DNA of 64,000 bases. Origin: Patescibacteria group bacterium. GTDB taxonomy: Bacteria > Patescibacteriota > Patescibacteriia > UBA9934. How positions within the stretch are numbered: the stretch's first letter is position 1; each line of letters begins with the position of its first letter. The notes under the pieces are model-generated. The model searched no databases. It saw only the letters and a list, made by a program, of their open reading frames with translations, and had not been told where the DNA came from. The stretch lies in contig JBAZWW010000002.1 of assembly GCA_041660165.1 (NCBI GenBank), positions 132,074 through 196,073 on the forward strand. The letters run 5' to 3'. The position numbers were made by a program, and so were the translations under genes. Shown one piece after another: positions 11,568-62,291 of this stretch.

Positions 11568-11570
11568 GCT

Positions 11571-27552: not shown

Positions 27553-27561
27553 ATTTTGCGC

Positions 27562-29283: not shown

Positions 29284-29291
29284 AGATTTTT

Positions 29292-31343: not shown

Positions 31344-31350
31344 ATTTGTA

Positions 31351-33087: not shown

Positions 33088-33092
33088 AGATT

Positions 33093-34823: not shown

Positions 34824-34826
34824 AGG

Positions 34827-35822
34827 TTAGGTTTTGGCTGTTCTATTTTTGGCGGCTTCCGTGTGTGCTCGCCACTGGTTGACTACGTCCTCAACGTCTT
34901 CTTTTTGCACGGCGGGATGTTTTGTCTGTTTAGCCGCTCCGTGGACCAGACCTAAGTGTTTGCCGTGGTGTTTGTCCGAGTACTCGATAGAAACTTTGGC
35001 CGCTGCTTCATCTATCAGGTCAATCGCTTTGTCCGGCAGGAACCGCCCGCGAATATACTTGTCAGAGAGCCTGACGGCTTCTTTTAACACCTCGTCAGGA
35101 ATCGTCACCTTGTGAAACGCCTCATACTCCGGCCTGAGCGTTTGCAGCATTCGTACCGCCTGTTCAGGCTTTGGCTCATCCACGAGTACTGGTTGGAAGC
35201 GTCTGTCGAGGGCCGCATCAGTCTTGATGTACTTGGCGTACTCGTCCCAGGTGGTGGCCCCAATAATATGCAAATCGCCCCTGGCTAGGGCGGGTTTGAA
35301 GATATCCGTGACGTTCAGTGCTCCTTCCGTTCCGCTGGCCTGGACGATCATGTGAACCTCGTCAATAAACAAAATAGTTTCGCGGGATTCTTTTTCCAGC
35401 TCGGCCAAAAAGTCCTGCAGGCGTTTTTCAAGTTCTCCCCGGAACTTCGTTTCGCCGAGTACAGCTGCCAGATTAAGCGCATAGAGCGACTTATCTCTGA
35501 GCGAATCCGGCACGTTGCCATCAGCTATGCGTTGGGCGAGTCCGTGAACAATGGCCGTTTTGCCTACGCCAGGCTCGCCAATCAAGAGGGGATTGTTCTT
35601 TGATCGGCGCATCAAAATATGAATAGTCCGGTCAACTTCCGGTTCCCGTTCGCTAAAAGGATCAAGTTTTTTGTCTTTTGCCTGCTTTACTAAATCTGTA
35701 AAATAATCCTGCTTACGGCTTTTTTTGCCGGCAGTCTTGGGTTGATATTTATTCTGATAAATAATACTGCCTCCGATGATCGCTAAAACCATCGCTATGC
35801 CCCAGAGGACATTTGGATTCAT
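34827..35822 (-). CDS. Membrane-anchored AAA+ ATPase homologous to the D1 nucleotide-binding domain of ClpB/ClpC only (no N-domain, no D2)
   Basis: N-terminal TM helix [15 protein letters not shown], Walker [12 protein letters not shown], Walker B ILFIDEVH, arginine-finger region [11 protein letters not shown]. Its stop lies 3 nt from the ATG of paralog 5. Confidence 0.7.
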
Positions 35823-35870
35823 AAGCCAAGTTATTCCTGGCTATTATAACATCAAAAAATGCCCGCCTAG

Positions 35871-37232
35871 CTACTTTCCTAGCTCCTTTACATGTTTTGT
35901 ATTCTTGGGCGTCAACGATGCGGGCATGCCGAGTCTTTCGGCCTCCTTTAGGCGCCTCTCTAGGAAGGGGACTGAGCGGACTTCACCGCCCAAACCAAGC
36001 TCGCCAAGGATAATCATATCGGCAGGGAAGGTCTTTTCGTTGATCGCCGAAATGATGGCTGCGGCCACCGCTAGGTCAGCGGCGTGCTCGTCAATTTTTA
36101 TTCCGCCGACTACGTTCACATACACATCTTGATCATACACTTTGATGCCGGCGCGTTTAGAGATGATCGCGAGCAACATTTGGAGTCTCGACGCATCATA
36201 ACCGCTGGTTCGGCGAACAGGATTCGGGAAGAAGCTCTTGTCCACGAGCGCTTGGATTTCGACCAGGAATGGTCTCGAACCCGCCATGATACACGTCACG
36301 ACCGAGCCCGGCCCCGGCACCCGTTCTTTCAGAAACCTCGCCGAGGGATTTTCAACGGCGATCAGGCCCTTTTCAGTCATTTCGAAAACTCCGATCTCCT
36401 CGGTGCTCCCGAACCGGTGTTTTTCTGCTCGTAGAATTCTATAGGCCGAGTCTGGATCGCCTTCGAGTGTGAGCACGGTATCGACTAAGTGTTCGAGCGT
36501 TTTCGGTCCGGCGATAGATCCTTCCTTGGTTACTTGGCCGATAATAAGCACAGGAATCCCCGTCGATTTCGCAAATCCTATTAGTTCGGTGGTGGCCGCT
36601 CGCACGGCCGTTGGTGTCCCCGGGAACGAATCAGCCTCGGCCACCATCATCGTCTGGATTGAATCTACAATAACGATACTCGGTTTCTCTGCCTTGGCCG
36701 CTGCCACAATCGCGCCCACGTCAACCGCGTTCGAGAATAGAATGGTCGAAGGATTTATGCCGAGTCTCTCAAAGCGCATCCGTACCTGTCCCTCAGATTC
36801 CTCGCCGGAGGCGTAGTAGGACGTCACCATCCTGAGCGAGAGCGAAGGATCCGACTTTCTCTTGTGAGGGTCGGACCCCTCGGTTGCAACCTCGGGGCGG
36901 GAGGGGATCGAAGTGAAGGATGTTGCGATCTGTGCTACGAGCGTCGATTTTCCAATTCCAGGCTCGCCAGCCAGCAAGGTCACTGAGCCTGGCACAATGC
37001 CTCCGCCAAGCACTCGATCAAGTTCGGATAATCCTGTAGAAACAGGGGAGACCATGGCCCCTGTTGCGTCGCCTAGTTTGAGGGTTTGTGCGGGTTTGCT
37101 CGACGATGTTTTTTTGGATAACGAAGACAGCGCCGTGGCGCCGTCCTCCGAAAGCGTGCCCCATTTCCCGCATTCCAGGCAACGGCCGGACCATCTCAGG
37201 ACTTGCGTGTCGCAGTGTGAACAGCTGAACAT
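35871..37232 (-). CDS. radA: DNA repair protein RadA/Sms
   Basis: N-terminal C4 zinc finger CSHC...CLEC, Walker A GEPGIGKST, and a Lon-like C-terminal domain. It carries an extra ~26 aa between the Walker A helix and the GEES motif. Confidence 0.9.
   Translation of the reverse strand: MFSCSHCDTQVLRWSGRCLECGKWGTLSEDGATALSSLSKKTSSSKPAQTLKLGDATGAMVSPVSTGLSELDRVLGGGIVPGSVTLLAGEPGIGKSTLVAQIATSFTSIPSRPEVATEGSDPHKRKSDPSLSLRMVTSYYASGEESEGQVRMRFERLGINPSTILFSNAVDVGAIVAAAKAEKPSIVIVDSIQTMMVAEADSFPGTPTAVRAATTELIGFAKSTGIPVLIIGQVTKEGSIAGPKTLEHLVDTVLTLEGDPDSAYRILRAEKHRFGSTEEIGVFEMTEKGLIAVENPSARFLKERVPGPGSVVTCIMAGSRPFLVEIQALVDKSFFPNPVRRTSGYDASRLQMLLAIISKRAGIKVYDQDVYVNVVGGIKIDEHAADLAVAAAIISAINEKTFPADMIILGELGLGGEVRSVPFLERRLKEAERLGMPASLTPKNTKHVKELGK
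36828..36905. repeat. Copy C of the palindromic repeat family, inserted in frame inside radA
   Basis: ATCCTGAGCGAGAGCGAAGGATCCGAC...GTCGGACCCCTCGG matches the intergenic copies at 43880 and 49091. Its right end has diverged. Confidence 0.6.
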
Positions 37233-47999: not shown

Positions 48000-49070
48000 A
48001 TGATAAAGAAATTGCAAGAACTAGAAACAGAATGTCTCAAAGCATTTTCGAGCATCTCAACTTCCGCCGAACTTGAGGCTTCTCGGGTCGCTTATTTGGG
48101 ACGCAAGGGTAGACTCGCAGACATCCTGGCTGATCTGCCGAAATTGTCGAACGACGAAAAGCGTTCGGCCGGCCAGAAGGCCAATGAAGTGAAGTCGGCT
48201 ATTGAGGGAGCATTTGAGGCGGCCGTGGCGCGCATTGACTCGGCCCAATCCGCCAAGCGCGCAGAAAAAGAGTGGCTGGATATTTCTCTGCCAGGTTCAG
48301 AGCCGTCAGTCGGCCATCTTCATTTGACAAGTCAAGCGATTGAGGAAATTTCGGATATTTTTTCCCGCCTTGGTTTCGTTCGCGCTCGTCACCCCGAAGT
48401 AGACTGGGATTATTATGCGTTCGAATCCTTGAACATGCCGAAGGACCATCCCGCTCGGGATGATTGGGAAACGTTTTTTGTCGAGGGTGAAAATAATCGC
48501 GTGGCCGAGGGAGAAAAAGGCAAAATCGTGCTCACTCCGCACACCAGCAACGCGCAGGTGCGGGAGATGGAAAAGGGGCAGTTGCCGATCCGCATGATCA
48601 ATATCGGTAAGTGCTACCGCCGGCAATCAACGGCCAGACATCTGACCATGTTCCATCAGTTTGAAGGATTGGTAATTGACAAAACGGCGACCGTTACAGA
48701 ACTCAAAGGGGTGTGCGATTATTTTGCGAAAGCTTTTTTTGGCGAGGGCCGGGTAACTCGTTTACGCCCCTACCATTTCCGTTTTACGGAGCCGAGTTTT
48801 GAGCTCGATGTCTCGTGCGCCGTGTGCGATGGTTCTGGTCTCGTTGCCGGGGCGAAATGCAAGCTGTGCAAAGGCGGTTGGCTTGAGCTCGGCGGAGCCG
48901 GCATGGTGCATCCAAATGTTTTGAAAGCCGGCGGACTCAATCCGAAAGAGTATCAAGGTTTCGCTTTCGGTTGGGGTGTCGAGAGAACCGCCATGATGCG
49001 TTCCGGTCTGAACATTGATGATATTCGGATCATGTATAAGAATGATCTGAGATTCCTCCAGCAATTTTAG
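48000..49070 (+). CDS. pheS: Phenylalanine--tRNA ligase alpha subunit
   Basis: Class II aaRS motifs and the FGWGVERTAMM region; 356 aa. Confidence 0.9.
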   Translation: MIKKLQELETECLKAFSSISTSAELEASRVAYLGRKGRLADILADLPKLSNDEKRSAGQKANEVKSAIEGAFEAAVARIDSAQSAKRAEKEWLDISLPGSEPSVGHLHLTSQAIEEISDIFSRLGFVRARHPEVDWDYYAFESLNMPKDHPARDDWETFFVEGENNRVAEGEKGKIVLTPHTSNAQVREMEKGQLPIRMINIGKCYRRQSTARHLTMFHQFEGLVIDKTATVTELKGVCDYFAKAFFGEGRVTRLRPYHFRFTEPSFELDVSCAVCDGSGLVAGAKCKLCKGGWLELGGAGMVHPNVLKAGGLNPKEYQGFAFGWGVERTAMMRSGLNIDDIRIMYKNDLRFLQQF

Positions 49071-49090
49071 AGTTAGAGTTTGTTTATCTC

Positions 49091-49193
49091 TATCCTGAGC
49101 GAGAGCGAAGGATCCGACTCCTCGGGCGTAGCCCTACGGGCGAGCCTCACCGGTGAAAGTCGGACTCTTCGCATGGCTCAGAGTGGGACCATT
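49091..49193. repeat. Copy B of the palindromic repeat family (intergenic between pheS and pheT), carrying an extra nested hairpin insert
   Basis: ATCCTGAGCGAGAGCGAAGGATCCGAC ... CTCACCGGTGAAAGTCGGACTCTTCGCATGGCTCAGAGTGGGACCATT. Confidence 0.7.
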
Positions 49194-49206
49194 CACCAAT
49201 CTTTCT

Positions 49207-51615
49207 ATGAACATCCTCGCCTCATATAACTGGATCTGCGAATACCTCGATACAACATTGTCGGCGGACGAATTTGCCAAGGAGCTTTCGCTGAAGTCCA
49301 TGTCCGTTGAGAAAATCGACAAGCTGGGCGATAAGTTTGACCACATGGTGGTGGGCCTCATCAAAGAAATCAAAACGCACCCAAATGCGAACAAGCTTCG
49401 TATTGCCGTGACTGATATTGGCGAGAAGACGGTTGAGATCGTGTGCGGAGGATCGAACCTCGAGGTCGGTCAACGCGTGTTCGTCGCTCTCCCCGGTGCC
49501 AAGGTGAAATGGCACGGCCAAGGCGAGGATATCATCCTCGCAGAGGCTGAAATTCGCGGAGTTAAAAGCATCGGCATGATTTGTGCGCCTGCGGAAGTGG
49601 GATTTGACAAACTGCCAGCGGGCGAGCACGAAATTTGGGATCTCTCAGCGGTTACGAACGCGAAGGCCGGTACTCCGATCGTTGAAGCGCTTGAGCTCAA
49701 CGATACAATTTTCGACATTGAAATCACTACGAACAGACCCGACTGCATGAGTATCATTGGCCTAGCCCGTGAAGGCGCCGCCGTGGTAGATGGGCGTTCC
49801 CCCTCTTTCCAAGAGGGGGCTACGGGGGAGTCTCAGGGTGGCCTCGACGTCAAACTCGAATCCTCAAAGTGCTCCCGCTACATGACGGCTACGGTGAAGA
49901 ACGTCAAAGTTGGCCCTTCGCCATGGTGGCTTCAGAAGAAACTTTTGCTCGCCGGCCACAGACCGATCAATAACATTGTTGATATTACGAATTTAGTTTT
50001 GCACGAGTACGGCCAACCGCTTCATGCATTTGACTCGGCAAAAATCCACGGCGGAAAAATTATTGTGCGCGAGGCCATGAAAGGGGAGAAGCTCAAGGCG
50101 CTGGACGGCAAAGAATACGAGTTGTCTCGTAAGAACCTGATCATCGCGGACGCAGAGGGAGCTCTCGCCGTGGCCGGTGTGATGGGCGGACTCGAGTCCG
50201 GAACGTCGAACGCGACCACGACGGTCATTTTCGAGTCAGCCACATTTGACGCCGTGTCCGTTCGCCGGACGGCAAGAGATTTGAACCTTTACTCGGACTC
50301 CCAGCTCGTTTTCGAAAAGGGTCTCTCGACCGAAGCTTTGCCGAGTGCGTTGGCACGAGCGGTCGAACTCGCAAAAGAGATTGCGGGCGGTACACTCGAC
50401 GGAGTAACTGATGCTCAGCCAAAGCCGTACAAGCATCGAACGTATAAGACCTCGACCAAAAAGATTCGCGCGCGGATCGGCGTGGAAATTTCTGACGAGG
50501 AGATCGAGAAGATTTTGTCGAAACTTGGCTTCGCACTCGAAAAGAAGGGACATGTCATCACAGCCACGGTGCCGTACTGGAGAGATCATGACATCGAGTC
50601 GGAAATTGACCTGACCGAGGAAGTTGCGCGCATTTACGGCTATCACCGCATGCCATCCCGGCTTCCCGCCATTCAACCGCCGGCCGCGGTGAATGATGTT
50701 TCGCTCTCGTGGGAGCGCTCGCTCAAACGCGCGCTGGCAGGACTTGGCTATACGGAATTTTTCGGCTTATCGCTCGTTGATGCAAAGGATCTGGAGCACT
50801 ATGGCCTTTCGCCCGTTGATGCGATCAAGCTTTTGAATCCGCTGACGGAGGATTTGAGCTACCTTCGCCCTTCGCTCATGCCGTCGCTTTTGAAGAGCAT
50901 CGAAAGAAACCAAGCAAACGTCCCCTCGGCCCGTGTTTTCGAACTCGCTCGAGTGCACATGGCGTCTGTCATCCCGAGTGACAACGAGGGATCTGCATTG
51001 CCCGACGAACGCCTGCGCCTGGTCATCGCGGAATTCGGCTACGACAGCGCAGAGTCAGCCTTCATGCATCTCAAAGGAACATTGTCAGAGCTTGGCCGGA
51101 ACACCGGCGTCAGCTTCACGCTCAAGCGCGTAGATGACGAACCGCATTATCACCCCGGTCGTTCGGCGAGTATCCATGCCACGAGTGCAGGCGCTAGCAT
51201 CATTGCCGGTTCCATGGGCGAGCTTGCCCCGGAGTTCGCGCGAGCATTCGGCCTCGCGGGTTCGGTGTTCGTGATCGATCTTGATCTCGAAGCGCTCATC
51301 CCGCATATGCGCAAGAGCCTGCGCTATGAACCCATGGGCGAGTTCCCAACCTCCCGTCGAGACCTGTCATTTGTGGTGAACGAGCGCACGGCGTATGAGG
51401 ATATTGTGACAGCTATCAAGACTCCCTTGCTCTCAGACACCGCACTCGCTGACATTTACCGCGGGGCCGGCGTAGATGACGGCAAGAAATCCCTCACGCT
51501 TTCTCTGACCTTTGGCTCTCTTGATCGCACCCTCACCGGCGAGGAAGTAGAAACGGCCATCAAGGCTATCATTGTTACCCTTGAGGGCAAATTCGGCGCA
51601 GTGTTGCGCGGGTAG
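49207..51615 (+). CDS. pheT: Phenylalanine--tRNA ligase beta subunit
   Basis: Start at MNILASYNWICEYL (canonical PheT N-terminus), followed by tRNA-binding, B3/B4, B5 and FDX-ACB domains in order. The ORF track starts 54 nt upstream. Confidence 0.9.
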   Translation: MNILASYNWICEYLDTTLSADEFAKELSLKSMSVEKIDKLGDKFDHMVVGLIKEIKTHPNANKLRIAVTDIGEKTVEIVCGGSNLEVGQRVFVALPGAKVKWHGQGEDIILAEAEIRGVKSIGMICAPAEVGFDKLPAGEHEIWDLSAVTNAKAGTPIVEALELNDTIFDIEITTNRPDCMSIIGLAREGAAVVDGRSPSFQEGATGESQGGLDVKLESSKCSRYMTATVKNVKVGPSPWWLQKKLLLAGHRPINNIVDITNLVLHEYGQPLHAFDSAKIHGGKIIVREAMKGEKLKALDGKEYELSRKNLIIADAEGALAVAGVMGGLESGTSNATTTVIFESATFDAVSVRRTARDLNLYSDSQLVFEKGLSTEALPSALARAVELAKEIAGGTLDGVTDAQPKPYKHRTYKTSTKKIRARIGVEISDEEIEKILSKLGFALEKKGHVITATVPYWRDHDIESEIDLTEEVARIYGYHRMPSRLPAIQPPAAVNDVSLSWERSLKRALAGLGYTEFFGLSLVDAKDLEHYGLSPVDAIKLLNPLTEDLSYLRPSLMPSLLKSIERNQANVPSARVFELARVHMASVIPSDNEGSALPDERLRLVIAEFGYDSAESAFMHLKGTLSELGRNTGVSFTLKRVDDEPHYHPGRSASIHATSAGASIIAGSMGELAPEFARAFGLAGSVFVIDLDLEALIPHMRKSLRYEPMGEFPTSRRDLSFVVNERTAYEDIVTAIKTPLLSDTALADIYRGAGVDDGKKSLTLSLTFGSLDRTLTGEEVETAIKAIIVTLEGKFGAVLRG

Positions 51616-51633: not shown

Positions 51634-51945
51634 ATGTTGGGAACCCAAGACATCCTCTTCATCGTTCTCGCTTTTTGCGCGCTGTGGTTCACGGCCTTTC
51701 TTTGCTGGTTGTTATTCCAAGCGGCCAGTTTGCTCAAGCGCCTGCATGGCTTAGTTGATGAAGTCAAAGTAAAAATTGATGAACTCCAGCAGTCCATTGT
51801 TGGCATGAAGCGTAAGTTTGACGGCAACGTAGCCCTCATCACCGGCATTGCCGATGGTGTTCGCAGAATCATGGAAGCGCTGAAAGCCATGGACGGGATG
51901 GGGAGAAAAAAGACGTACAAGAGCGAAGATGAGGAGATGATGTAA
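51634..51945 (+). CDS. Small membrane protein with a coiled-coil C-terminal half (hypothetical)
   Basis: 103 aa with an N-terminal TM helix. Confidence 0.5.
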   Translation: MLGTQDILFIVLAFCALWFTAFLCWLLFQAASLLKRLHGLVDEVKVKIDELQQSIVGMKRKFDGNVALITGIADGVRRIMEALKAMDGMGRKKTYKSEDEEMM

Positions 51946-51953
51946 ACTCTGGC

Positions 51954-52358
51954 ATGTTAAAGCAAGATGAACTACTGGATCTAGCGAAGACTCGGTTCGC
52001 TGAGGCGCGTGTGCTTCATGAAAACGGCAAGCATGACGGCGCCGTCTATCTTTGCGGTTATGCGATTGAGCTGGCCTTAAAATGGGTTATTTTGAAAGAC
52101 AAACTTTGGGGATTTCCTGATGAACCGGAAGAGTTCAAGCTATATGAAGAAGTAAAAACGCATGACTTAGAAAAGTTGCTGACTATTGCAAATAGACAAC
52201 AAATGCAGAATGATAGAGTATTCTCCATACCTTGGGGGTATATCAAAAACTGGAGATCGGAGTTTCGTTATCGGCCGATTGGCATGGTCAAAGAGGTAGA
52301 CTCTTCCCAAATGTTGTCATCTGTGGATGCTATCATGAAAGCGCTTGGAGTAGCCTAA
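51954..52358 (+). CDS. HEPN-like domain protein
   Basis: AVYLCGYAIELALK and THDLEKLL resemble HEPN helices. A canonical Rx4-6H motif is not evident. Confidence 0.4.
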   Translation: MLKQDELLDLAKTRFAEARVLHENGKHDGAVYLCGYAIELALKWVILKDKLWGFPDEPEEFKLYEEVKTHDLEKLLTIANRQQMQNDRVFSIPWGYIKNWRSEFRYRPIGMVKEVDSSQMLSSVDAIMKALGVA

Positions 52359-52359
52359 T

Positions 52360-52740
52360 ATGGATCAGTTGATGAAAGATAAATTGCAGAAGATAGCGTT
52401 AGCCCTCGAATCAACGAAGGGAGAATTAAAATTGCTTGCCTGCGTTTGGAGGGATGATGTAAAAAAATGGGATATTTTGGTCAGTGCTAATTGGATTAAT
52501 TACAGCAAACTTCAAGAAGATATTGGGGTTATTTTTGACGAGTTTAAAAAGGAATTCAATGGGGAATTCGCTCTTCGTTTTTCAGGAATTTTTCCGTTGT
52601 CAACTACTGAACCCTTCGTGAATCAAATAACTCAACTGATTTCTGTTACTTCCGGAACCGTCGAACTTAAGGAGATACGCATCGGGGAGGTAAAAGTTGA
52701 TAAGATCGCCCTGATTGTTTCGAGGCCTGTTGTGGCTTAA
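52360..52740 (+). CDS. Hypothetical protein translationally coupled to the HEPN-like gene; possibly a degenerate nucleotidyltransferase-like partner
   Basis: The start lies 2 nt after the preceding stop. There is no GS...D.D motif; only a KKWDILVSA stretch. Confidence 0.4.
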   Translation: MDQLMKDKLQKIALALESTKGELKLLACVWRDDVKKWDILVSANWINYSKLQEDIGVIFDEFKKEFNGEFALRFSGIFPLSTTEPFVNQITQLISVTSGTVELKEIRIGEVKVDKIALIVSRPVVA

Positions 52741-53005
52741 CGGTTGGTGGTAAAAATATGTTTACAGGCATTTTTTCAGCATTACGCCCAGCATCCGCTG
52801 GAGGTTCAAGCGACTTTTCCAAATTCTTCCGAGAGGCATCTTCCCGTGAAAAGAAGAGAGTCTTTTTGGACGTCGCTAGAAAGGCAAGCAAAGAACAGCG
52901 GGACGTCATCCAAGCCTCTCAGAGAACACGTTAGAAAAAAAGCAGTCCTGCCAGAGATGGCTGGGCTGTTTATTTTTTTGTCCGAATATGGCACAGTAGC
53001 CCTAT

Positions 53006-56000
53006 ATGCTGACGCCAGAAAAAGCACAGATTGCCGTAAATGAGTACTTTTCTGCGTTGGCAGAGAAATTTCGTACAGGACAGGCGCGCGAGCACGCGTA
53101 CAGGCCAGTGCTTGAGAAATTGATGAAGGACCTTGATCAGTCGCTGAACGTTTTGAATGATCCGGCCAGAAGCGAGCACGGAAATCCCGACTTCATCTTT
53201 TTACGCGGTGACATCATGGTGGGTCATGCTGAGACAAAGGATATTGGCGTATCGCTCAGTAAGACAGAGAACTCCGAACAGCTCAGTCGTTATTTTGGTT
53301 ATGCGAACCTTTATCTCACGGACTATCTGGAGTTTCGGTTCTTCAAAAATGGCGCCAGATCAAACGAACCCATTGTGATCGGGACGATCAAAGACGGCCA
53401 GCTCGTGGCTCATCCTGAGCGCTTTGCTGAGCTAGCCACTGCGTTGGCCGATTTCGTGCAGGGCAAGCCTCAGCCCATCAAAAGCGGGAAACGACTCGCG
53501 GAAATTATGGGTGGCAAGGCCCGCCGGCTTCGGGACAATGTCCAGCAGTTTCTTGGGACTGAGTCTGAGAAGAACGCGGAGCTGATGCGTATTTATGAGA
53601 CGATCAAGAAACTTCTTGTTCATGATCTTTCCATAGAAAAGTTTGCGGATATGTACGCTCAGACGCTTGTCTACGGCCTCTTTGTGGCCCGTTACAATGA
53701 CAACACGCCGGAAAACTTTTCACGCCAGGAAGCGCGCGAGTTAGTTCCTGAAAGCAATCCCTTTTTACGCGAATTTTTTGACCACATTGCCGGCACTCGT
53801 TTTGATAAGCGTCTGGGCTTCATTGTAGATGAGCTCTGCGCAGTTTTTACGGTCAGCGATTTGAAGGAAATTGTTCACAGGCATCTCAAGGTAGAAGAGG
53901 ACGGAAAGGATGAGAAGGATCCCATCATCCATTTCTACGAAGATTTTTTGCACGAGTACGATCCGGCAGAGCGCAAGAAAATGGGCGCGTACTACACTCC
54001 GCTTCCCGTTGTCCGTTTCATTGTCCGCGCGGTTGATGAGGCGTTAAAGCGTGATTTTGGCTTGCCCAAGGGTTTGGCTGACACCTCAAAGCGCAAAGTG
54101 ACTGTTACGACTCAGGGCATGAAGCCAAAAGAAGTGGAGATACACCGCGTGCAAATCCTTGATCCCGCCGTTGGTACCGCTACGTTCTTGAATGAAATCA
54201 TTAAGCACGTGGCTAAGGATTTTAAGGGCCAGGAAGGACGCTGGTGTTCCTACGTGGAATCTGACCTCATGCCCCGTCTTCACGGGTTTGAGCTCATGAT
54301 GGCTCCCTACACGATCGCTCACCTCAAGCTAGCGATGACCCTGCAGGAAGCCGGTTGCGGTCATCTCAATCAGCGCCTTGGCGTTTATCTCACAAACACC
54401 CTTGAAGAAGGTGTGAAAGTTGATGACACTCTCTTTGGTCTTGGCCTCTCAGATGCCATCGCCAAAGAAGCCGAAGCTGCCGGCAAAATCAAGCACGAAA
54501 AACCCATCATGGTCATTGTCGGCAACCCGCCGTACAGCGGCGAGTCTTCAAACAAAACCGATTACGCCATGAGTCTTGTGGCGAAATATAAATTCGAGCC
54601 GGGCGGGAAAGAAAAGCTCAAGGAACGCAACCCAAAATGGATCAATGACGATTACGTTAAGTTTATCGCCTTTGCGGAAGACATGATTGAGAAAACCGGC
54701 GAGGGCATTGTGGCCATGATCACAAACCACGGCTACCTCGACAACCCCACCTTCCGCGGTATGCGTTGGCACCTCGCCGAGACATTCGACAAACTTTACA
54801 TTTTGGATTTGCACGGGAATGCCAAGAAGAAAGAGACTTCTCCGGATGGAAGCAAGGATGAGAACGTATTCGCGATTCAACAGGGAGTGTCAATCATCGT
54901 GGCTGTTAAAACAGGTAAGAAAAAGATTGGTGCTCAGGCCGCGGTCATGCACGCGGATCTTTTTGGCACACGGGTGAATAAATTCTCAACACTGAATGAA
55001 GATCGTATTTGTTGGATAGAAATTAAGCTTGATGAGAAGTTTCTATTCTTTGCTAATAAAAATACTGAGGGTAAGGAAGAATACGACCGAGGGATATCAA
55101 TCACCGACCTCTTTCTGGAAAACAGTGTCGGCATTGTTACTGGACGAGACGAACTGACGATTGATTATTCCCGAGAGGATCTCTGGAGAAGGGTTCAAAG
55201 ATTCGCCGATCTTGACGTTGAGGACGCTAGATCAGAGTTCCATCTTGGAAAAGACGCGCGTGATTGGCAGGTAGATCTGGCGCAGAAGGATATCAGAAGT
55301 AACTTCTCTGAAACGAAATTAGAGTCGATATATTATCGGCCATTCGACGTTCGTTGGACGTATTACACCGGCAACTCTCGTGGGTTCTATTGTTATCCGC
55401 GGTACGAAGTCATGCAACATTTTTTGAAAGGGGAGAATGTTGGACTTGATATTTGTCGTCAAAATATCTCGCAAGAATTTTCTCATGTTTTTGTTACTGA
55501 CAGAATCGCCGATGACTCGTATGTATCCAATAAATCCCGTGAGCGCGGATACGTGCTTCCGTTGTTCATCTATCGAGAAGACGGCGAGCGAGTAGCTAAC
55601 TTTGATCCGGAAACAATCAAACAATTCACGGCGAGTTTAGAAGAGTTATTTGACCCGGAAAATGTATTGGATTATATCTACGCAATTTTGTACAGTCCCG
55701 CCTACAGGACAAAGTACATGGAATTCTTGAAGACCGACTTCCCTCGGGTTCCCGTGCCAGAGAACGACAAACAGTTCCACGCACTTGCAGAGTTCGGCAA
55801 ACAATTACGAGAGCTTCATCTGCTCACATCGCCCAAGGTACATGATTTCATCACCACGTATCCCAAGGAGGGATCAAATCTTGTAGAAAAGCTAGCGTAT
55901 AAAGACGGGAACGTCTGGATCAATGCCAACCAGTACTTTGGCGGTGTGCCGGAGATAGCTTGGAACTTCTACATTGGTGGTTATCAGCCAGCTCAGAAGT

Positions 56001-56140
56001 GGTTGAAAGACAGAAAGGGAAGAGCGCTTGAGAATAAAGACATTGAGCATTATCAACAGATGATCGTGGCATTGGCAGAGACCGATAAGATTATGAAGGA
56101 AATTGATACGGTTGCTTTTGTCAGGCTGAACACAGTATGA
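53006..56140 (+). CDS. Fused N-terminal PD-(D/E)xK endonuclease plus gamma-class N6-adenine DNA methyltransferase with a C-terminal target-recognition region (MmeI-family Type IIL / PglX-like)
   Basis: N-terminus NPDFIFLRG...GHAETKD (D...ExK), MTase motif I ILDPAVGTATFL, motif IV VIVGNPPYSG; 1044 aa. Confidence 0.75.
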   Translation: MLTPEKAQIAVNEYFSALAEKFRTGQAREHAYRPVLEKLMKDLDQSLNVLNDPARSEHGNPDFIFLRGDIMVGHAETKDIGVSLSKTENSEQLSRYFGYANLYLTDYLEFRFFKNGARSNEPIVIGTIKDGQLVAHPERFAELATALADFVQGKPQPIKSGKRLAEIMGGKARRLRDNVQQFLGTESEKNAELMRIYETIKKLLVHDLSIEKFADMYAQTLVYGLFVARYNDNTPENFSRQEARELVPESNPFLREFFDHIAGTRFDKRLGFIVDELCAVFTVSDLKEIVHRHLKVEEDGKDEKDPIIHFYEDFLHEYDPAERKKMGAYYTPLPVVRFIVRAVDEALKRDFGLPKGLADTSKRKVTVTTQGMKPKEVEIHRVQILDPAVGTATFLNEIIKHVAKDFKGQEGRWCSYVESDLMPRLHGFELMMAPYTIAHLKLAMTLQEAGCGHLNQRLGVYLTNTLEEGVKVDDTLFGLGLSDAIAKEAEAAGKIKHEKPIMVIVGNPPYSGESSNKTDYAMSLVAKYKFEPGGKEKLKERNPKWINDDYVKFIAFAEDMIEKTGEGIVAMITNHGYLDNPTFRGMRWHLAETFDKLYILDLHGNAKKKETSPDGSKDENVFAIQQGVSIIVAVKTGKKKIGAQAAVMHADLFGTRVNKFSTLNEDRICWIEIKLDEKFLFFANKNTEGKEEYDRGISITDLFLENSVGIVTGRDELTIDYSREDLWRRVQRFADLDVEDARSEFHLGKDARDWQVDLAQKDIRSNFSETKLESIYYRPFDVRWTYYTGNSRGFYCYPRYEVMQHFLKGENVGLDICRQNISQEFSHVFVTDRIADDSYVSNKSRERGYVLPLFIYREDGERVANFDPETIKQFTASLEELFDPENVLDYIYAILYSPAYRTKYMEFLKTDFPRVPVPENDKQFHALAEFGKQLRELHLLTSPKVHDFITTYPKEGSNLVEKLAYKDGNVWINANQYFGGVPEIAWNFYIGGYQPAQKWLKDRKGRALENKDIEHYQQMIVALAETDKIMKEIDTVAFVRLNTV

Positions 56141-56304
56141 CGCCCGATGAAATAAAAGAAAAACGAGCAGAGTTTCTCCGATTAACGCGTCAAGCCCAAG
56201 AAATAAGGGACCGTCTTATTGCGCGTGCTGAAGTGTTGATGAAGGAGCTGGATATTTCTTTTGATGAGGCGCTGAACTATATTCGGAATGTGGACACAAA
56301 GTAG
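56137..56304 (+). CDS. Small ORF (55 aa, MTPDEIKEKRAEFLRLTRQAQEIRDRLIARAEVLMKELDISFDEALNYIRNVDTK) overlapping the MTase stop in ATGA fashion
   Basis: Translationally coupled small ORF found by my own translation; it is below the ORF-track cutoff. Confidence 0.3.
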   Translation: MTPDEIKEKRAEFLRLTRQAQEIRDRLIARAEVLMKELDISFDEALNYIRNVDTK

Positions 56305-56352
56305 CGAATGGTGCTTTGTGTGGTTACGCTAGCTACTTAGTTGGAACGTGGT

Positions 56353-57993
56353 TTAGAATGTTGGGTCGGGCATCATGCCTGTCGCCGGCGATTTTAGTTC
56401 GCGCCAGATAGCCACCATGGCGTAAGTGTCACGCCCGCAGTATTTTCTCAAATTTTGGGAGATTTTCATTTTTTCTTCTTGAGAGATAGAGCCGTAAATC
56501 ATTTCATACCAAGCTTCGATAGCTTCTACGCCATTTTGAATTTCTAGTTCCTTGTAGGTCAGAGAGGGTACCATTACGGGCAGAACATTCTTGATCGATG
56601 TTTTTCCTCTAAATTCGGGATGGACGTAAAACTGTTTTTGAAAGATGTCTTTCAGATCGTAAATCCTATCGTTGATGTTTTCGAGGTAGTCAGCATAGTC
56701 GGGATTTCTCTCGGCTAATTGAGAGTTGATCATTCGTTCAAAAGGTTTATGCCAGACGATGATCGTTCCTTCTGGTCCGATGGTGTCGTGCAGCTTCTTG
56801 ATAATCGTTAATGAGGGGTCAGAGGCCTCTTCGTGTAGGTACTCAAAATGTTCTAAATCAGCTCCAGGTGTAGGGATCATGTCGAGAGAGAATTGAAATG
56901 GAACCTGTTGATATGGTTTAAAGCCTTTAAAGAGAGGGATAGCCGGAGGGTAACTTTCGTAGTCGAGAAAAAATAAGGGGAATGACAACGAAGCAAGCTC
57001 TACTCTGATGGCGATGGGGTCGATGATTGATTTCTTCATCTTGTGGACGGTGACCTGATTCTTTTGGATATCAGAGAGTTTAAAATCCTCAGGGACGTCA
57101 TTCAGATCAAAGATGCCCGATTCGACTAGAGATTCTAACTTCTTTTTGCTTAGGCCGATGCGCGATAAATCATGAACGGAGTAAGGGGGAACTTGTGGAT
57201 GAGAATAATTAAACGTACTGCAATGCGAGCTACGACCTGCAAAGAGACATTCGCATGTTAACGCCTTTTCATCTGTCTGGGTGAGCGCGAGCTTCGCTTT
57301 TTGCATGTTATCTCGTGTTGCGACGAGCCTCGTATGGACCTTATCCGTGACATCATCACACACGAACAGTTCGGCGGCATTTATAGTGTCCCCGCGTGCA
57401 TATTCTTTATTGAGATGGATGATGAAGATGCGACCTAGTTTTATGCCAGCGTCTTCTACGACAACAGCTTGAAAGGCGGCGTCCTCTACATGATCTCTGC
57501 CATCCTCCTTTTCATTCATGGAGTTTGTGCCCTTCACCTCGTGGAGATCCCAACAGTCATTTATGGCGTCGTAAGCTAAAACATCATTGCGTACCAAGAA
57601 TCCGTCATAGATAAAGGTTGCCTGGAAAATAACGGGAGTCTTTTTATCCACGAGCACCTTTGTTACCTGCGCCGCATATTCTCCTGCGCTCTCGATTAGC
57701 GTGCCATCAGGAAAAAGTTTCCGTGCCCATTCTTCGACAAGGTTGCCTTTTGCTAGGAGGCTTAGCTCGAACTCAGACAAAGTAAACATTGATTGAAGCT
57801 CTGGCTTATAGAGCTTGAGCCAAGTATTTTTACCACAGGCCAGGAACTCGAGATAGAGGGTCTTAGTAATGTAGTTCATATACCCAGCCATATTTAAAGC
57901 CATCGGTTTGGCGTTTTCCAGAAGATACGCGTCCAACAATATTTTTATCTGGCTTGGAATAAAGCAAGCCGACTTGTCGGGTTTTGAGTCCAA
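56353..57993 (-). CDS. Putative PD-(D/E)xK-family nuclease domain protein with a C-terminal Cys cluster
   Basis: N-terminal FQATFIYDGFLVRNDVLAYD...DLHEVKG (D-x(n)-ExK) and a later C-x-C...C cluster. The start is probably at an internal Met, because the track ORF overlaps the SNF2 gene end by 131 nt. Confidence 0.45.
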   Translation of the reverse strand: MDSKPDKSACFIPSQIKILLDAYLLENAKPMALNMAGYMNYITKTLYLEFLACGKNTWLKLYKPELQSMFTLSEFELSLLAKGNLVEEWARKLFPDGTLIESAGEYAAQVTKVLVDKKTPVIFQATFIYDGFLVRNDVLAYDAINDCWDLHEVKGTNSMNEKEDGRDHVEDAAFQAVVVEDAGIKLGRIFIIHLNKEYARGDTINAAELFVCDDVTDKVHTRLVATRDNMQKAKLALTQTDEKALTCECLFAGRSSHCSTFNYSHPQVPPYSVHDLSRIGLSKKKLESLVESGIFDLNDVPEDFKLSDIQKNQVTVHKMKKSIIDPIAIRVELASLSFPLFFLDYESYPPAIPLFKGFKPYQQVPFQFSLDMIPTPGADLEHFEYLHEEASDPSLTIIKKLHDTIGPEGTIIVWHKPFERMINSQLAERNPDYADYLENINDRIYDLKDIFQKQFYVHPEFRGKTSIKNVLPVMVPSLTYKELEIQNGVEAIEAWYEMIYGSISQEEKMKISQNLRKYCGRDTYAMVAIWRELKSPATGMMPDPTF

Positions 57994-60900
57994 GTCTAGT
58001 CTTGACTTGGATGCACGCGGCTACACATTGCCCATTGGGAGACAGCTGCGCAGACTCAACTTCGCAGTTTCCACCTCCGATCGCTAAGGTTGCCTTTTCG
58101 GCTATTTCCTTCCAGGATTCTTGCTCCTCACTCGTTCTCTGTATCCCTCCTAGTAGGCGGACAAGCGATTCAAGACGAAACGGTGCCTCCGCTGTCATAT
58201 ATTCGGAACGGATATCCAATCCCGTCAGGTAACAGCTTCTTAAGTCGTTAGGGTGTGATGGCTTTCCACTCCAAGCGCATAGCCTAGCTTCGATGGGAGT
58301 ACAGAACTTTCCATCTACCGATCTTATGGCTTCCGTTTCTAGTAAACGAACTGACGACAGGCTACTGGAGACAAATAGTTTCTTTAATGCCAATTTGCCT
58401 GAAACCGCAGATTTTTCGAGTTCCGCAGGCATTACTTTTTTGCCTGTCACCCCGCATATCTCCAGAATACCGGGCATTACTATCTTGCCGGTCATTTCGC
58501 ATATTTCAGCTTCTCCGGGAAGGAGTTTTTGATTTGTTTCTGCGCAAGAAATAAACTCCTGTATATGTCCTTTCTTACCGCTTATTACCGAGCGAGCTTG
58601 CTCATCATGTCGGTATGGTTTTCCGGATACTTCACTTGTAGCTGATTCGTTAACAAGCATGTCTGACGAACTAAATACACATTTGATAAATTGATTTGGC
58701 TCGGCTCGTTTGCCACTCACCGCAGATGTCAAAAGCATCTCGGTAACTACATTCTTTCCTGTGGTATCGGACTTCGTCATCTCGCTCAAGAGGGCGCGTT
58801 TATTTGTCAGGGAGCAGATCCCTATGTGTTCCGGAAGGGCAAGTTTTCCACTTATTTCGGAATTGCTTAGCAGGTGACGGAGAACTCGCACGTTACTGAC
58901 CTGGCATGTTTCTAGGCATTCGATCGGAACATTGGAGCCAGTCTGAGTACATGAGCCCATCTCAGGTACGACAATAGCGCCACTGGATGGAGTCACTGAG
59001 ATGGAACTTGAGTATTCGAAGGTATTTCCAATCTTGTATCGAATGTTGAAATCAAGAAGTCTTTGCACCGTCCCACTAAGACCGACCAATGTGATCTCAA
59101 CTCTTGGGGTGAGGTCATCCTGAATCTTCTTCTTTCTGTATTCACTCGCTCCTGCCGCAGGGAGTTCTTGAGTTAGTCGTTCACGATAAAAGCGGCCAAA
59201 TTCTGTAACACCCGGGTCAAGTAGTGCTTTCGATACTACGTAATCTGGGACAAGTCCGATGGCGGAGGGGTTTTGGAATACATCACTAATCGGCTCGAGA
59301 CCAGGCCGCCCGATGCTCTTTTTATGTTCCTGGGGAGTGCACTCGACTTCTACGAGTCGCTCGTAGCTGTCATGGGCGACTGTGGTACGTATGAGTAACA
59401 AAACCGTACCTTCGTAGTTCCGCCAAACATCTGTGAGACTCAAATTGCTAGACGTCGCACCAAATCCTTCCACCCACTTTTTAGCGATTTCTTGTGCCTG
59501 AGGAAGAGGGTCTTTATCGATATCTCGAATTTGGTGTTTGCCGTATTTAGCGATCTTATCTGCAAGTTTTTGAAAGGCGGGAGTGCCCTGGGAATAGGTC
59601 GTGGCGGTAATTCCAGTACTGTCGTTGAAGTTGATTAATTTATTTTCACCGTCAAGCGACAGCTCAAATTGTCCAGACGGCTTCTCTACAAGGTCAGCAC
59701 CAAGGCTATTCAAGCCTGACATCACAAAACTACGTTCGTCGATAGAGTACGAAATTGGTGGCAGCTTTGGGCTTAGGGGACCAGAGTCGTCAGAACCATT
59801 GCTGCCAAGAGTCGCATTGATTGTTTCTTCATCGCGTTCTAGTTGGAGTTTGGCTTCAGCTATGTTTTTCTCAGCCAGACGAGTCGCAGCCTCTATGTTC
59901 TTTCCAGCCAGAGACGCGCCAACCAACTTAAGAATTTTGTCCTCTAGGCTTTCACCTTCTTCGCCCATGCCCGCCGCTTCCAATAACGCCTCCACATCGC
60001 CGACTGCATGAGATGCCATCTGCAATTTCTCCAATAGCCTCGCGACAATATATTCTTCAAATGTTCCCTCAAGAACCATGTTAAATATGCAGACGCTGGA
60101 ATGCTGAGATCCAAGGCGTTGTACACGACCAATACGCTGTTCAACAATCATTGGATTCCAGGGGAGATCGTAGTTAACCAGAACATTGGCCGCTTGGAGG
60201 TTGACGCCCTCCGACCCCGCCTCAGTAGAAACGATAACGTGAATTTCTGGAATGTCCTTTTTAAACTTCGCGATTGTCTCTTGGTTCCTTGGCCCCGACG
60301 TCCCGTTGATAAGCCCGCATGTAATCTTTTTATCGGAAAGATGTTCAGCAATGACAGCCTGAGTTTCTTTTCTACAGGTAAAAATAACGACTCTCCATTT
60401 GTCAGGATTCTCAGCCCTTAGCTTCTCGATGAGGGTAGAAAGACCGTGAAGTTTTGCTGTTGTACCGATACGATTCACGACCTCACGAACGTCCACGGCT
60501 AGTGGCTTCTCGATAGTTTGATTTATTGCCATGTTTTCTAGTTGCACGGCTAGGGCTTGGGGGCTGCTGACGAGGGCTTGAGCAATCGAGATTTGACTGA
60601 GACGATTCATTTTTGAGAACTCCTTTTCAATAAGAGAGAAGAGTTCGTCTTCTTCCGCTGTCGGTCTTACCTTGTATAGCTCTACCTTTCGATCTGGAAA
60701 ATCTAAATCGGCGTCTGCGCGCCGAAAGCGAGACATGTAGCTATAAACGATGCTACGGAATTCGTCTCTTTTTTCCGGTTTTAGTTTTCTAGCTTGTATC
60801 TGGTCACCTTCGATAAATTTCCGAGCAAAAGAGCTTTCGCTCCCGAAAGGATTCTCGTGTCCTCGCGCTCCAGTGAGCAAATCAACGAGTGAATAGAGAT

Positions 60901-61585
60901 CCCACAGGCGATTTTGAATTGGAGTGGCCGTGAGCATCAATACGTACCTGAAGAGTCGGTCGGTTAGGGCTTTCTTGAAACGCTTGGCTACTTCTGGCGG
61001 TTTCTCGGTACCGAAAAGATTACGTAATTTATGAGCTTCATCGAGGATGAGCATGTCAAAACCCATCTCGCCTAATTCATCTAAGTATTCCCTGGCTGAA
61101 TGGTAGGTAGTGATGAGAGCGCCTCGGTCTTCTGGAAGTTCGACCTTGAGAATCTTAGAACCCGTTTCTCCTATGCTCGAAATGGCAAATTTAGTCTCGA
61201 GTTCCTCCTTCCACTGAGGGATGAGAAGTTTAGGGCACACAACTAAGACCTTATTAACCCTTCCTCTGGCCATGAGTTCACTGACCACTAGGCCGGCGCT
61301 AATGGTTTTTCCAAGACCCACGTCGTCAGCGAGAAGAGTCACCGGTAACCGACGACAAAAATTCATCAGATTCGAAACCTGATGGCGGTATGGTTTGATC
61401 AGTTCTTTCCAGACTCTTTTGGATCGGAGATCTTCCGGCTTATCTATGATGATCGGGGCTATAAGTCCGTACTCCAGAGCTGCACGATATAGTTTGTACT
61501 CGGCGTCGCTAGTTGCTAGTCGCAATGTTTTAGTTTGGAAGGACGGCTTCGAAGAATCCATACTATAAATGAGACCCTTCATCAA
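57863..61585 (-). CDS. SNF2-family helicase (1240 aa) with a ~600-aa C-terminal extension that includes about 10 tandem degenerate 13-17-aa SGK repeats
   Basis: SNF2 N-terminal motifs LADDVGLGKT and ILDEAHKLRN (DEAH), LMLTATPIQN, and helicase-C STEAGSEGVNLQ...QRIGRVQRLGS. The repeats are of the form SEISGK, TTGK, AVSGK, EVSGK, VISGK, MTGK, VTGK, AVSGK, VDGK, WSGK. Confidence 0.8.
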   Translation of the reverse strand: MMKGLIYSMDSSKPSFQTKTLRLATSDAEYKLYRAALEYGLIAPIIIDKPEDLRSKRVWKELIKPYRHQVSNLMNFCRRLPVTLLADDVGLGKTISAGLVVSELMARGRVNKVLVVCPKLLIPQWKEELETKFAISSIGETGSKILKVELPEDRGALITTYHSAREYLDELGEMGFDMLILDEAHKLRNLFGTEKPPEVAKRFKKALTDRLFRYVLMLTATPIQNRLWDLYSLVDLLTGARGHENPFGSESSFARKFIEGDQIQARKLKPEKRDEFRSIVYSYMSRFRRADADLDFPDRKVELYKVRPTAEEDELFSLIEKEFSKMNRLSQISIAQALVSSPQALAVQLENMAINQTIEKPLAVDVREVVNRIGTTAKLHGLSTLIEKLRAENPDKWRVVIFTCRKETQAVIAEHLSDKKITCGLINGTSGPRNQETIAKFKKDIPEIHVIVSTEAGSEGVNLQAANVLVNYDLPWNPMIVEQRIGRVQRLGSQHSSVCIFNMVLEGTFEEYIVARLLEKLQMASHAVGDVEALLEAAGMGEEGESLEDKILKLVGASLAGKNIEAATRLAEKNIAEAKLQLERDEETINATLGSNGSDDSGPLSPKLPPISYSIDERSFVMSGLNSLGADLVEKPSGQFELSLDGENKLINFNDSTGITATTYSQGTPAFQKLADKIAKYGKHQIRDIDKDPLPQAQEIAKKWVEGFGATSSNLSLTDVWRNYEGTVLLLIRTTVAHDSYERLVEVECTPQEHKKSIGRPGLEPISDVFQNPSAIGLVPDYVVSKALLDPGVTEFGRFYRERLTQELPAAGASEYRKKKIQDDLTPRVEITLVGLSGTVQRLLDFNIRYKIGNTFEYSSSISVTPSSGAIVVPEMGSCTQTGSNVPIECLETCQVSNVRVLRHLLSNSEISGKLALPEHIGICSLTNKRALLSEMTKSDTTGKNVVTEMLLTSAVSGKRAEPNQFIKCVFSSSDMLVNESATSEVSGKPYRHDEQARSVISGKKGHIQEFISCAETNQKLLPGEAEICEMTGKIVMPGILEICGVTGKKVMPAELEKSAVSGKLALKKLFVSSSLSSVRLLETEAIRSVDGKFCTPIEARLCAWSGKPSHPNDLRSCYLTGLDIRSEYMTAEAPFRLESLVRLLGGIQRTSEEQESWKEIAEKATLAIGGGNCEVESAQLSPNGQCVAACIQVKTRLGLKTRQVGLLYSKPDKNIVGRVSSGKRQTDGFKYGWVYELHY

Positions 61586-61770
61586 TTAAAATGCTTGTGC
61601 CAAGCTTAGCCTCATTATAGCTTGTTGTAAAATGAGCCGACACCAAAAGCTCCTTAATGGGCCCTATCTAAATAACAACTTTGACAAAATATAAACGTAA
61701 TATAGGAAATAACTTAGAGCGGTGCTGATGAGTCATTGTTAGCAAAACGGAACAAAGAAGTAATGAACAA

Positions 61771-61820: not shown

Positions 61821-62291
61821 ATGAGCACATTAAACGTTGGCGACAAAGCACCGGAGTTCTCGCTCCCCGATCAAAACGGCACGGTTCACAGCCTCGCCCA
61901 AAATAAGGGGAAGTGGGTTTTGTTGTATTTCTATCCCAAGGACATGACGCCGGGCTGTACGGTTGAGGCTTGTGAGCTTAGAGATGCCTGGCAGGATTTT
62001 GCGAAAGTTAATGCGGTAGTTTTCGGCGTCAGTGCAGACTCGGTGAAGAGCCACAAGAAGTTTGAAGAGAAGCACTCTCTGCCGTTTCCAATTCTTTCGG
62101 ATGAGGACAAGACAGTCATCAATGCCTACGGCGCCTGGGGCAAGAAGAAATTCATGGGACGGGAGTATGAGGGGATTTACCGCTGGTCGTTTTTGATAAA
62201 TCCCACAGGGATGATTGAGAAGATTTACAAAGACGTGAAGCCAAAAGAACATGCGCGGGAGGTGCTTAAAGATTTACACGCCGGCGTATGA
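61821..62291 (+). CDS. bcp: Thiol peroxidase Bcp/PrxQ (peroxiredoxin)
   Basis: FYPKDMTPGCT peroxidatic-Cys motif; 156 aa. Confidence 0.85.
   Translation: MSTLNVGDKAPEFSLPDQNGTVHSLAQNKGKWVLLYFYPKDMTPGCTVEACELRDAWQDFAKVNAVVFGVSADSVKSHKKFEEKHSLPFPILSDEDKTVINAYGAWGKKKFMGREYEGIYRWSFLINPTGMIEKIYKDVKPKEHAREVLKDLHAGV

Follow-up and report, generated by a model that had tools for sequence, protein, structure and literature searches.

SNF2 helicases are known from several defence systems, and those closest to the protein described here are DrmD of DISARM, BrxHI of BREX, HmaA and RapA, which have a similar motor and with which it has the defence-island context in common. Anantharaman et al. 2012 are said to have linked TerY-P to SNF2 systems. 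TerY-P triads are associated with DNA-processing systems, and the OB fold or zinc ribbon that TerY-P kinases bear at their C terminus has been suggested to bind nucleic acid (PMC10542128, where Anantharaman 2012 and Gao 2020 are cited). The subject of this work is a gene in a 64,000-nucleotide (nt) stretch of a Patescibacteria group bacterium (contig JBAZWW010000002.1, positions 132,074 to 196,073; hereafter "the window"), which encodes an SNF2 protein with a long array of short tandem repeats behind its motor. While the motor is matched by the NCBIfam models of DrmD (6.7e-61) and RapA (6.2e-36) and by the PADLOC models of BrxHI (2.2e-58) and HmaA (2.6e-51), none of these matches reaches the array or the C-terminal domain. 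The array repeat is a real, widespread and unannotated domain, the structure of which is reasonably clear from modelling. The parts of this "SNF2-array protein" are the following:

57863..61585, minus strand: gene of the SNF2-array protein, 1240 amino acids (aa) from a TTG start, taken from the list of open reading frames (ORFs)
60110..61339, minus strand: SNF2 motor, residues 83-492, assigned by Pfam (SNF2-rel_dom 83-330; Helicase_C 386-492)
58994..59965, minus strand: middle region, residues 541-864, with a helical hairpin, alpha/beta sub-domains, very long beta-hairpins and the motif VAHDSYERLV
58184..58993, minus strand: repeat array, residues 865-1134, 18 units of 15 aa, delimited by register, periodicity, unit consensus and AlphaFold2 model
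58232..58303, minus strand: last two full units with C1095, C1103, H1111 and C1118, a candidate CCHC metal site capping the array
57866..58183, minus strand: C-terminal alpha/beta domain (residues 1135-1240), a five-stranded antiparallel sheet with one helix packed on it

The original prediction, made from the sequence alone, had placed about ten units of 13-17 aa, each centred on (S/T/D)GK, in the C-terminal extension of the helicase, at 58198-58948 of the window (residues 880-1130). That a genuine tandem repeat domain is present there is borne out by BLOSUM62 autocorrelation of the array, which gives z = 10.3 at lag 15 in comparison with 2000 shuffles, 8.0 at lag 30, 7.2 at lag 45 and 6.6 at lag 60; not one of the 2000 shuffles matched, at any lag, the values observed at these four, and no comparable periodicity is found in the remaining parts of the protein. 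The unit, however, is different from the one proposed. There are indeed ten [S/T/D]GK motifs between residues 911 and 1108 (GK at 913, 943, 958, 988, 1003, 1033, 1048, 1063, 1092 and 1107), spaced by 15 or 30 residues with a single exception of 29, but the stretches between them, when set in rows of 15 residues, are degenerate units which lack the GK and keep the register. Because these gaps hold in-register units, the array has to be counted as about 18 units of strictly 15 aa (865-1134), and the GK is the centre of some units only. On the DNA level, the periodicity which the prediction had wished to see checked is present as a weak 45-nt signal (identity at lag 45 of 36.5% versus 25.8% in codon shuffles, z = 6.6), but Tandem Repeats Finder reported no repeat; the array is an old repeat maintained at the protein level, and a recent DNA duplication is not its origin.

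For statistics of the unit, 2342 units were gathered from 204 proteins of the family by an iterated profile. Their consensus is [A/E/S]-V-[S/T]-G-[K/R]-[R/K]-[V/A]-L-P-[D/S/E]-E-[L/F]-x-x-[C/S]; in 95% of the units Ser or Thr stands at position 3, 83% have Gly at position 4, Lys or Arg occupies position 5 in 75% and position 6 in 45%, and Asp or Glu is found at positions 10 and 11 in 46% and 58%. The last residue is Cys in 66%, in agreement with the prediction that many units end in Cys, and Ser in 32%. Position 15 covaries with position 3 of the following unit: after Ser15 there are 852 Ser and 68 Thr, after Cys15 708 Thr and 525 Ser (chi-square 570), a value to be read with the limit that the units are statistically non-independent, many of them being orthologous copies. 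Conserved subtypes of the unit dominated the mutual information between its positions, from which no contacts were obtained.

Structure prediction, also proposed at the outset, returned a regular repeating unit. AlphaFold2, run on residues 830-1240 with an alignment of 56 sequences, gave a mean predicted local distance difference test (pLDDT) of 92.2 and a predicted template modelling score of 0.68, with pLDDT of 96-98 over the array. In the model every unit consists of a strand (positions 6-8), a P-x-E 3-10 turn, a second strand (12-14) and a six-residue loop, [C/S]15-x-x-[S/T]3-G4-[K/R]5, which leads into the next unit. This loop is laid out like the CxxCG zinc knuckle, except that Ser or Thr takes the place of the second ligand and that the first may be either Cys or Ser. 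It is well supported by the model that the array would be a stack of zinc-knuckle-like beta-hairpins, and hence a derivative of a known structural motif; equally well supported is that this derivative should be largely metal-free, because of the residues which stand at the two ligand positions of the knuckle.

Homology searches are in line with a domain that had no name. Pfam and NCBIfam recognise only the motor of the SNF2-array protein and nothing beyond residue about 560, and scans of its C-terminal 411 aa (residues 830-1240) with Pfam, NCBIfam and PADLOC gave no relevant match. No curated zinc-ribbon family of Pfam or NCBIfam matches these residues at E <= 1, and in five relatives searched at E <= 5 the only zinc-ribbon matches in Pfam were at chance level (zf-TFIIIC, E 0.11; Zf_2nd_IFT121, E 0.014). 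PDB sequence-profile searches, with the whole tail or with a three-unit profile, found chance-level matches only, among them MfpA (E 0.16) and the designed WD40 "Ika" proteins, the latter without any significant single stretch. Foldseek against the PDB had no match with E <= 0.001; LIM domains head its list non-significantly, and the weak fold matches are FYVE, RIM and LIM zinc fingers. JGI's annotation of one relative, 2098 aa long, contains the name "ribosomal protein S27E"; S27E is a zinc-ribbon protein. The claim that the repeat is unnamed and unrecognised hence stands at the level of sequence, but not at that of the predicted fold, which is recognisable as zinc-knuckle-like hairpins. In searches of the literature on DUF2779, DUF2093, SNF2 with RecB-like nucleases and zinc-ribbon repeats, we found no description of the array repeat or of the SNF2-nuclease pair considered below. 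As a side observation, single units of two relatives (P0068, residues 1066-1079; P0113, residues 541-557) match Pfam DUF2093 at 15.7 bits (E 0.01) and 12.3 bits (E 0.11), below the 25-bit threshold; DUF2093, a family of 42 aa to which no function is assigned, might represent the array hairpin in single copy, which we mention as a lead only.

The repeat is not confined to the window. When a three-unit profile was run against 1.84 billion cluster representatives (50% identity), 592 representatives were found at E <= 0.001, 192 of them at E <= 1e-30, so that the profile search suggested by the original prediction did detect the repeat in other proteins. In word-indexed searches, the three-unit profile retrieved four small fragments of the SNF2-array family only, and segments of the window only fragments of up to 681 aa. 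Nearly all complete relatives inspected have the same layout of SNF2 motor, middle domain, array and C-terminal alpha/beta domain. The lengths of the 88 N-terminally complete proteins among the best 150 run near-continuously from 1228 to 2098 aa, and the arrays comprise about 14 to about 72 units; the longest protein examined (P0060) has the motor, middle region and C-terminal domain of the window protein with about 72 units between them. In such long arrays, autocorrelation peaks at 181 aa (P0060), 180 aa (P0062) and at 59 and 118 aa (P0061), which indicates that they have grown by block duplication.

A survey of one genome per species yielded 56 related loci from Patescibacteria, Acidobacteriota, Nitrospirota, Planctomycetota, Ignavibacteriota, Deinococcota and Alpha-, Beta-, Gamma- and Deltaproteobacteria. 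Compared with the window protein, they show a median identity of 63.4% for the motor, 51.6% for the array, 41.5% for the C-terminal domain and 39.1% for the middle region. The VAHDSYERLV motif of the middle region is nearly invariant. Two sequence anchors that flank the array lie 289 aa apart in 26 genomes, while their distance is 288 aa in two, 228 in three and 408 or 409 in four; from these values it follows that lengths differ by whole units, and array length is shown to be fixed within a clade and to vary between clades, the changes often coming in blocks of about four, eight or twelve units. Two observations on single loci may be added. In several of them (for example L002, L008, L010, L035 and L047, around 10000-11600 in each) the motor is missing, and what is left is the array and the C-terminal domain, in some cases together with a portion of the middle region; these copies look like decayed gene remnants, in line with rapid turnover of defence genes. 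In a locus of Candidatus Gracilibacteria (L031, 372-4079), tblastn aligns the whole protein while ORF calling with table 11 fragments it; recoding of UGA (genetic code 25), which is known from this lineage, would fit such fragmentation.

The motor itself is, judged from its motifs and domain matches, a bona fide SNF2 ATPase: SNF2-rel_dom and Helicase_C score 108.4 and 68.9 bits, well above their Pfam gathering thresholds of 24.9 and 23.5, and the translation contains GLGKT, DEAH and QRIGRVQR, with the Walker A motif read as DDVGLGKT and the DEAH box as LILDEAHKLRN. The public gene call begins at an ATG at 61582 and gives 1239 aa; exactly this 1239-aa product is present on a public metagenome contig (ENA ERZ27249449 k141_293751). 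Identity with DrmD was considered and dismissed, the scores for NF038317 (206.7 bits; cut-off 610) and NF038318 (195.3; cut-off 950) being due to the motor only, and neither drmA, drmB (DUF1998) nor drmC (PLD) is found in the island at 51.6-61.7 kb. BrxHI was dismissed likewise: the best PADLOC stretch covers profile positions 448-610 of 933, again the motor only, and the island contains no BREX genes (PglX, PglZ, BrxC).

The genes which accompany the SNF2-array gene in the window are:

51954-52358, plus strand: HEPN-domain ORF, 134 aa (Pfam E = 7e-9)
52360-52740, plus strand: small partner ORF, 126 aa, without family match, starting one base past the HEPN stop codon
53006..56140, plus strand: Type IIG / Type ISP-like restriction-modification (R-M) enzyme, 1044 aa (N6_Mtase; Type_ISP_C 4e-90; PADLOC REase_MTase_IIG 1e-302)
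56353..57879, minus strand: DUF2779 partner gene, with a D...EVK motif in the N-terminal half of the product followed by the DUF2779 domain (Pfam E = 3e-40)

Together with the SNF2-array gene they fill positions 51650-61700, where GC content is 0.43-0.50 compared to 0.52-0.55 in the flanks, between pheST (48000-51615) and a bcp/AhpC-TSA-type peroxiredoxin gene (61821-62291). This region looks like an inserted defence island; neither a tRNA nor an integrase was found at its edges. The DUF2779 gene lies directly downstream of the SNF2-array gene on the same strand; its likely start is M39, which leaves an overlap of 17 nt with the SNF2 stop, and tblastn alignments of the protein in related loci begin at residues 39-42, while the public gene call starts at 57903. 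By eye, the D...EVK motif looks like that of a PD-(D/E)xK nuclease; DUF2779 is reportedly assigned to the RNase H-like superfamily by one published study. The Type IIG enzyme, in which no Pfam helicase or nuclease domain was detected, is convergent with the SNF2-DUF2779 pair in the same low-GC island. It co-occurs with the family in one of the 56 other loci, in Patescibacteria (L048), where the set of IIG, SNF2-array and DUF2779 genes is present; it is no conserved partner of the SNF2-array gene. The HEPN ORF and the 126-aa ORF could encode a HEPN toxin and its cognate partner. Elsewhere in the window, consecutive minus-strand ORFs at 25852-37232 include five alike in size (566-683 aa).

In the related loci, the direct same-strand neighbour of the SNF2 gene is of the DUF2779 type in eleven, of the TM0106 family in nine and more weakly TM0106-like in one, that is, a nuclease-type gene adjoins it in 21 of 56. 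The TM0106-family RecB-like nuclease (TIGR03491, E = 7e-70) has a Cas4-like N-terminus and RNase_H_2. A DUF2130 protein adjoins the SNF2 gene in three loci, and in one of them a TM0106-type gene is adjacent as well. In two of these loci (L005, 5915-7345; L011, 5806-7308) the DUF2130 gene (Pfam E = 1e-57 to 1e-71) lies upstream and its product has a long, coiled-coil-like N-terminal half; L005 has no RecB-like neighbour, whereas L011 has a TM0106-type gene downstream as well. Around P0060 (L061, 1-23823), a second SNF2 gene, an MmeI-like methyltransferase, a helicase, MZB/DUF1998 and PLD genes are interleaved with RES and GmrSD genes; this domain set we take to be that of a class 1 DISARM system. 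One locus (L060, 2261-12226) contains, in a row, a VWA-like gene, a PP2C gene, a kinase-array gene, a 279-aa ORF and an SNF2-array gene whose product is 39% identical to the window protein. The kinase-array protein (P0113, 1035 aa) has an APH/kinase-like head (23.4 bits; cut-off 23.2) and, behind it, about 22 units of the array; it lacks an SNF2 motor. A metagenome scan for relatives of P0113 found none. With PP2C_2 at 25.9 bits (cut-off 24) and VWA at 22.7 (below its cut-off of 23.8), this row looks like a TerY-P triad. TerY-P genes (VWA, PP2C, kinase) are present neither in the window nor in the other related loci searched.

What might such an array do? We tentatively propose, being slightly more inclined to doubt it than to trust it, that it is a rigid stalk and docking scaffold of clade-specific length, by means of which an ATP-driven translocase brings an effector to foreign DNA. 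The stalk, presumably a rod or a superhelix in shape, would hold the C-terminal domain off the DNA-translocating motor, at a length constant inside a clade and differing among clades; it would further offer conserved, unit-specific surfaces on which partners could dock, the candidates being the adjacent Cas4/RecB-like nuclease and, in one relative, the TerY-P-type kinase that carries the same array; and the translocase would deliver the docked effector onto foreign DNA. The prediction had guessed at a ligand- or nucleic-acid-sensing array or an effector-tethering module; tethering or docking is favoured over the other guesses on circumstantial evidence, namely the adjacency of the nuclease gene in the window and in 21 of the 56 loci, and the kinase with an array in L060. 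In a more far-reaching form, which is rather doubtful, the unit would be a hitherto undescribed, essentially metal-free descendant of the zinc knuckle that has become the rigid, evolvable stalk (14 to about 72 units) of a new, phylum-spanning defence module. The stalk would then serve as a ruler or homotypic adaptor, coupling the SNF2 translocase either with a Cas4/RecB-like nuclease or with a TerY-P kinase switch that bears the same array.

Several points weigh against a docking stalk for defence. About half of the 56 loci have no conserved neighbour, and a docking partner is hence not obligatory. The pairing of kinase and SNF2-array protein is seen in one locus only, and the array of P0113 is 40% identical to that of its neighbour compared to up to 51% to others. 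The family was found neither in plasmid and phage records (tblastn) nor in IMG/VR contigs (scan), PADLOC picks it up through generic SNF2 models only, and no published description or experiment tying it to defence was found. Finally, the conserved Lys and Arg at unit positions 5 and 6 would fit nucleic-acid binding, too.

This last point leads to the main competing explanation, according to which the array binds nucleic acid, with basic G-K/R-R/K knuckles lined up along one edge of the stack and tracking the DNA or RNA backbone, which would provide the translocase with a long secondary grip or a sensor of the substrate. We regard it as unlikely, although the basic positions are as frequent as stated above and the fold resembles zinc-ribbon and zinc-knuckle hairpins, and although the array of P0113 is attached at the C-terminal side of a TerY-P-like kinase, the very place where TerY-P kinases carry their suggested nucleic-acid binder. 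Arrays are near neutral, with a mean charge of +0.12 per unit in 196 arrays and a net charge of 0 for residues 865-1134, which lends no support to simple electrostatic binding; the acidic residues at positions 10-11 show the same degree of conservation as the basic residues, with which they may simply pair inside the fold, and no nucleic-acid-binding family matches the array sequence.

It has also to be considered that the array senses an invader protein or a small ligand, as the TPR, WD40 or LRR arrays of STAND and Avs NTPases do, and switches the motor on. The defence-island context, the portability of the array between an SNF2 ATPase and a kinase and the wide variation of unit number among clades would suit such a sensor. 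Its sequence conservation would not: the array is better conserved than the domains which flank it (see the median identities above), and the identities of its units are constant across phyla, the opposite of the rapid diversification usual in invader-sensing surfaces. A fast-evolving invader sensor is therefore unlikely to be what the array represents, and we consider a sensory role in general improbable.

Just as improbable is a true multi-zinc or iron-sulphur array, in which cysteines of adjacent units, perhaps aided by Ser, Thr or His, would hold a metal at most unit junctions as in an ordinary tandem zinc ribbon, even though the knuckle layout [C]xx[S/T]G and the zinc-finger fold matches bring it to mind. 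Cysteines do recur: they run at 1014, 1029 and 1044, with Cys 1059 present in 20 of 33 orthologues, and whether a given unit ends in Cys or Ser is constant throughout these 33 orthologues, which belong to different phyla. For the ends of units 1-14, the position preceding unit 16, and the ends of units 16 and 17, the order is C,C,S,C,S,S,C,S,S,C,C,C,C/S,S,S,C,C. However, no unit has more than one Cys, a third have Ser instead, and the second knuckle position is almost always Ser or Thr; a four-ligand site per unit pair is therefore impossible for most of the array, and modules of two CxxC/CxxH knuckles with four ligands were not found among the 2342 units. Further, the AlphaFold2 model of the fold is confident without any metal, and no zinc-ribbon family of Pfam matches. 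The sole complete candidate metal site of the array is C1095/C1103/H1111/C1118, which is invariant in all 33 orthologues; it may be one genuine CCHC site, situated in the last two units and capping the array. In distant relatives such as P0060 and P0068 this cap is not kept in the same form. A putative zinc cap at the N-terminal end (C879/C890/C894 and a His) was discarded, as H904 is not invariant and C890 is Trp in P0060. Least probable is a parallel beta-solenoid with a 15-residue coil and possibly a DNA mimic, like pentapeptide-repeat or insect antifreeze proteins (the latter are 15-residue-coil beta-solenoids), for despite the period, the two short strands per unit and the weak profile match to pentapeptide-repeat MfpA, that match is not significant, neither a Pentapeptide match in Pfam nor any other profile match or parallel beta-helix fold match was obtained for the array, and its [C/S]xx[S/T]G loop and covarying knuckle positions fit a knuckle hairpin.

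Several consequences deserve mention. Curated libraries are blank over 200 to >1000 residues in hundreds of large bacterial SNF2 proteins (the 592 representatives), and with the unit, its register, a confident predicted fold and the family boundary now set, there is sufficient information for a domain model. Probably a zinc-knuckle hairpin needs no zinc for its stability and can be repeated dozens of times, which is relevant to the evolution and design of repeat proteins. Members of the family are repeatedly found in defence islands, with R-M, DISARM-type, GmrSD, HEPN and TerY-P-like genes as neighbours, and the frequent pairing of the family with a Cas4/RecB-like nuclease makes the two genes a candidate anti-invader system that is absent from PADLOC. 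Since array length varies by whole units, often in blocks of four, eight or twelve, the natural variants provide an experimental handle on the role of stalk length.

In comparison with known systems, the array has something in common with each of several and is identical with none. Choline-binding or cell-wall-binding repeats form a superhelix of beta-hairpins with about 20 aa per unit, and like the array they are elongated tandem domains of short hairpins whose unit number varies among proteins; the array differs in its period of 15, in its consensus, in lacking the choline-binding aromatics and in belonging to a cytoplasmic, DNA-associated protein, and Pfam CW_binding does not match the SNF2-array protein. 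P0113 resembles the TerY-P kinases in that a kinase-like head is joined to a C-terminal accessory module and is encoded after VWA-like and PP2C genes, but its module is made up of 22 array units instead of one zinc ribbon, and the arrangement is known from one locus. With zinc-ribbon and zinc-knuckle hairpins (rubredoxin-type CxxC(G)) the array, as modelled, shares a short beta-hairpin whose closing turn is [C]-x-x-[X]-G; in contrast to them, it matches no zinc-ribbon family by sequence profile, lacks a four-ligand site per module and can have Cys at one of the knuckle ligands only. While FYVE, RIM/rabphilin and LIM domains stack two to four such hairpins, the array strings together 18 to about 72 uniform units.

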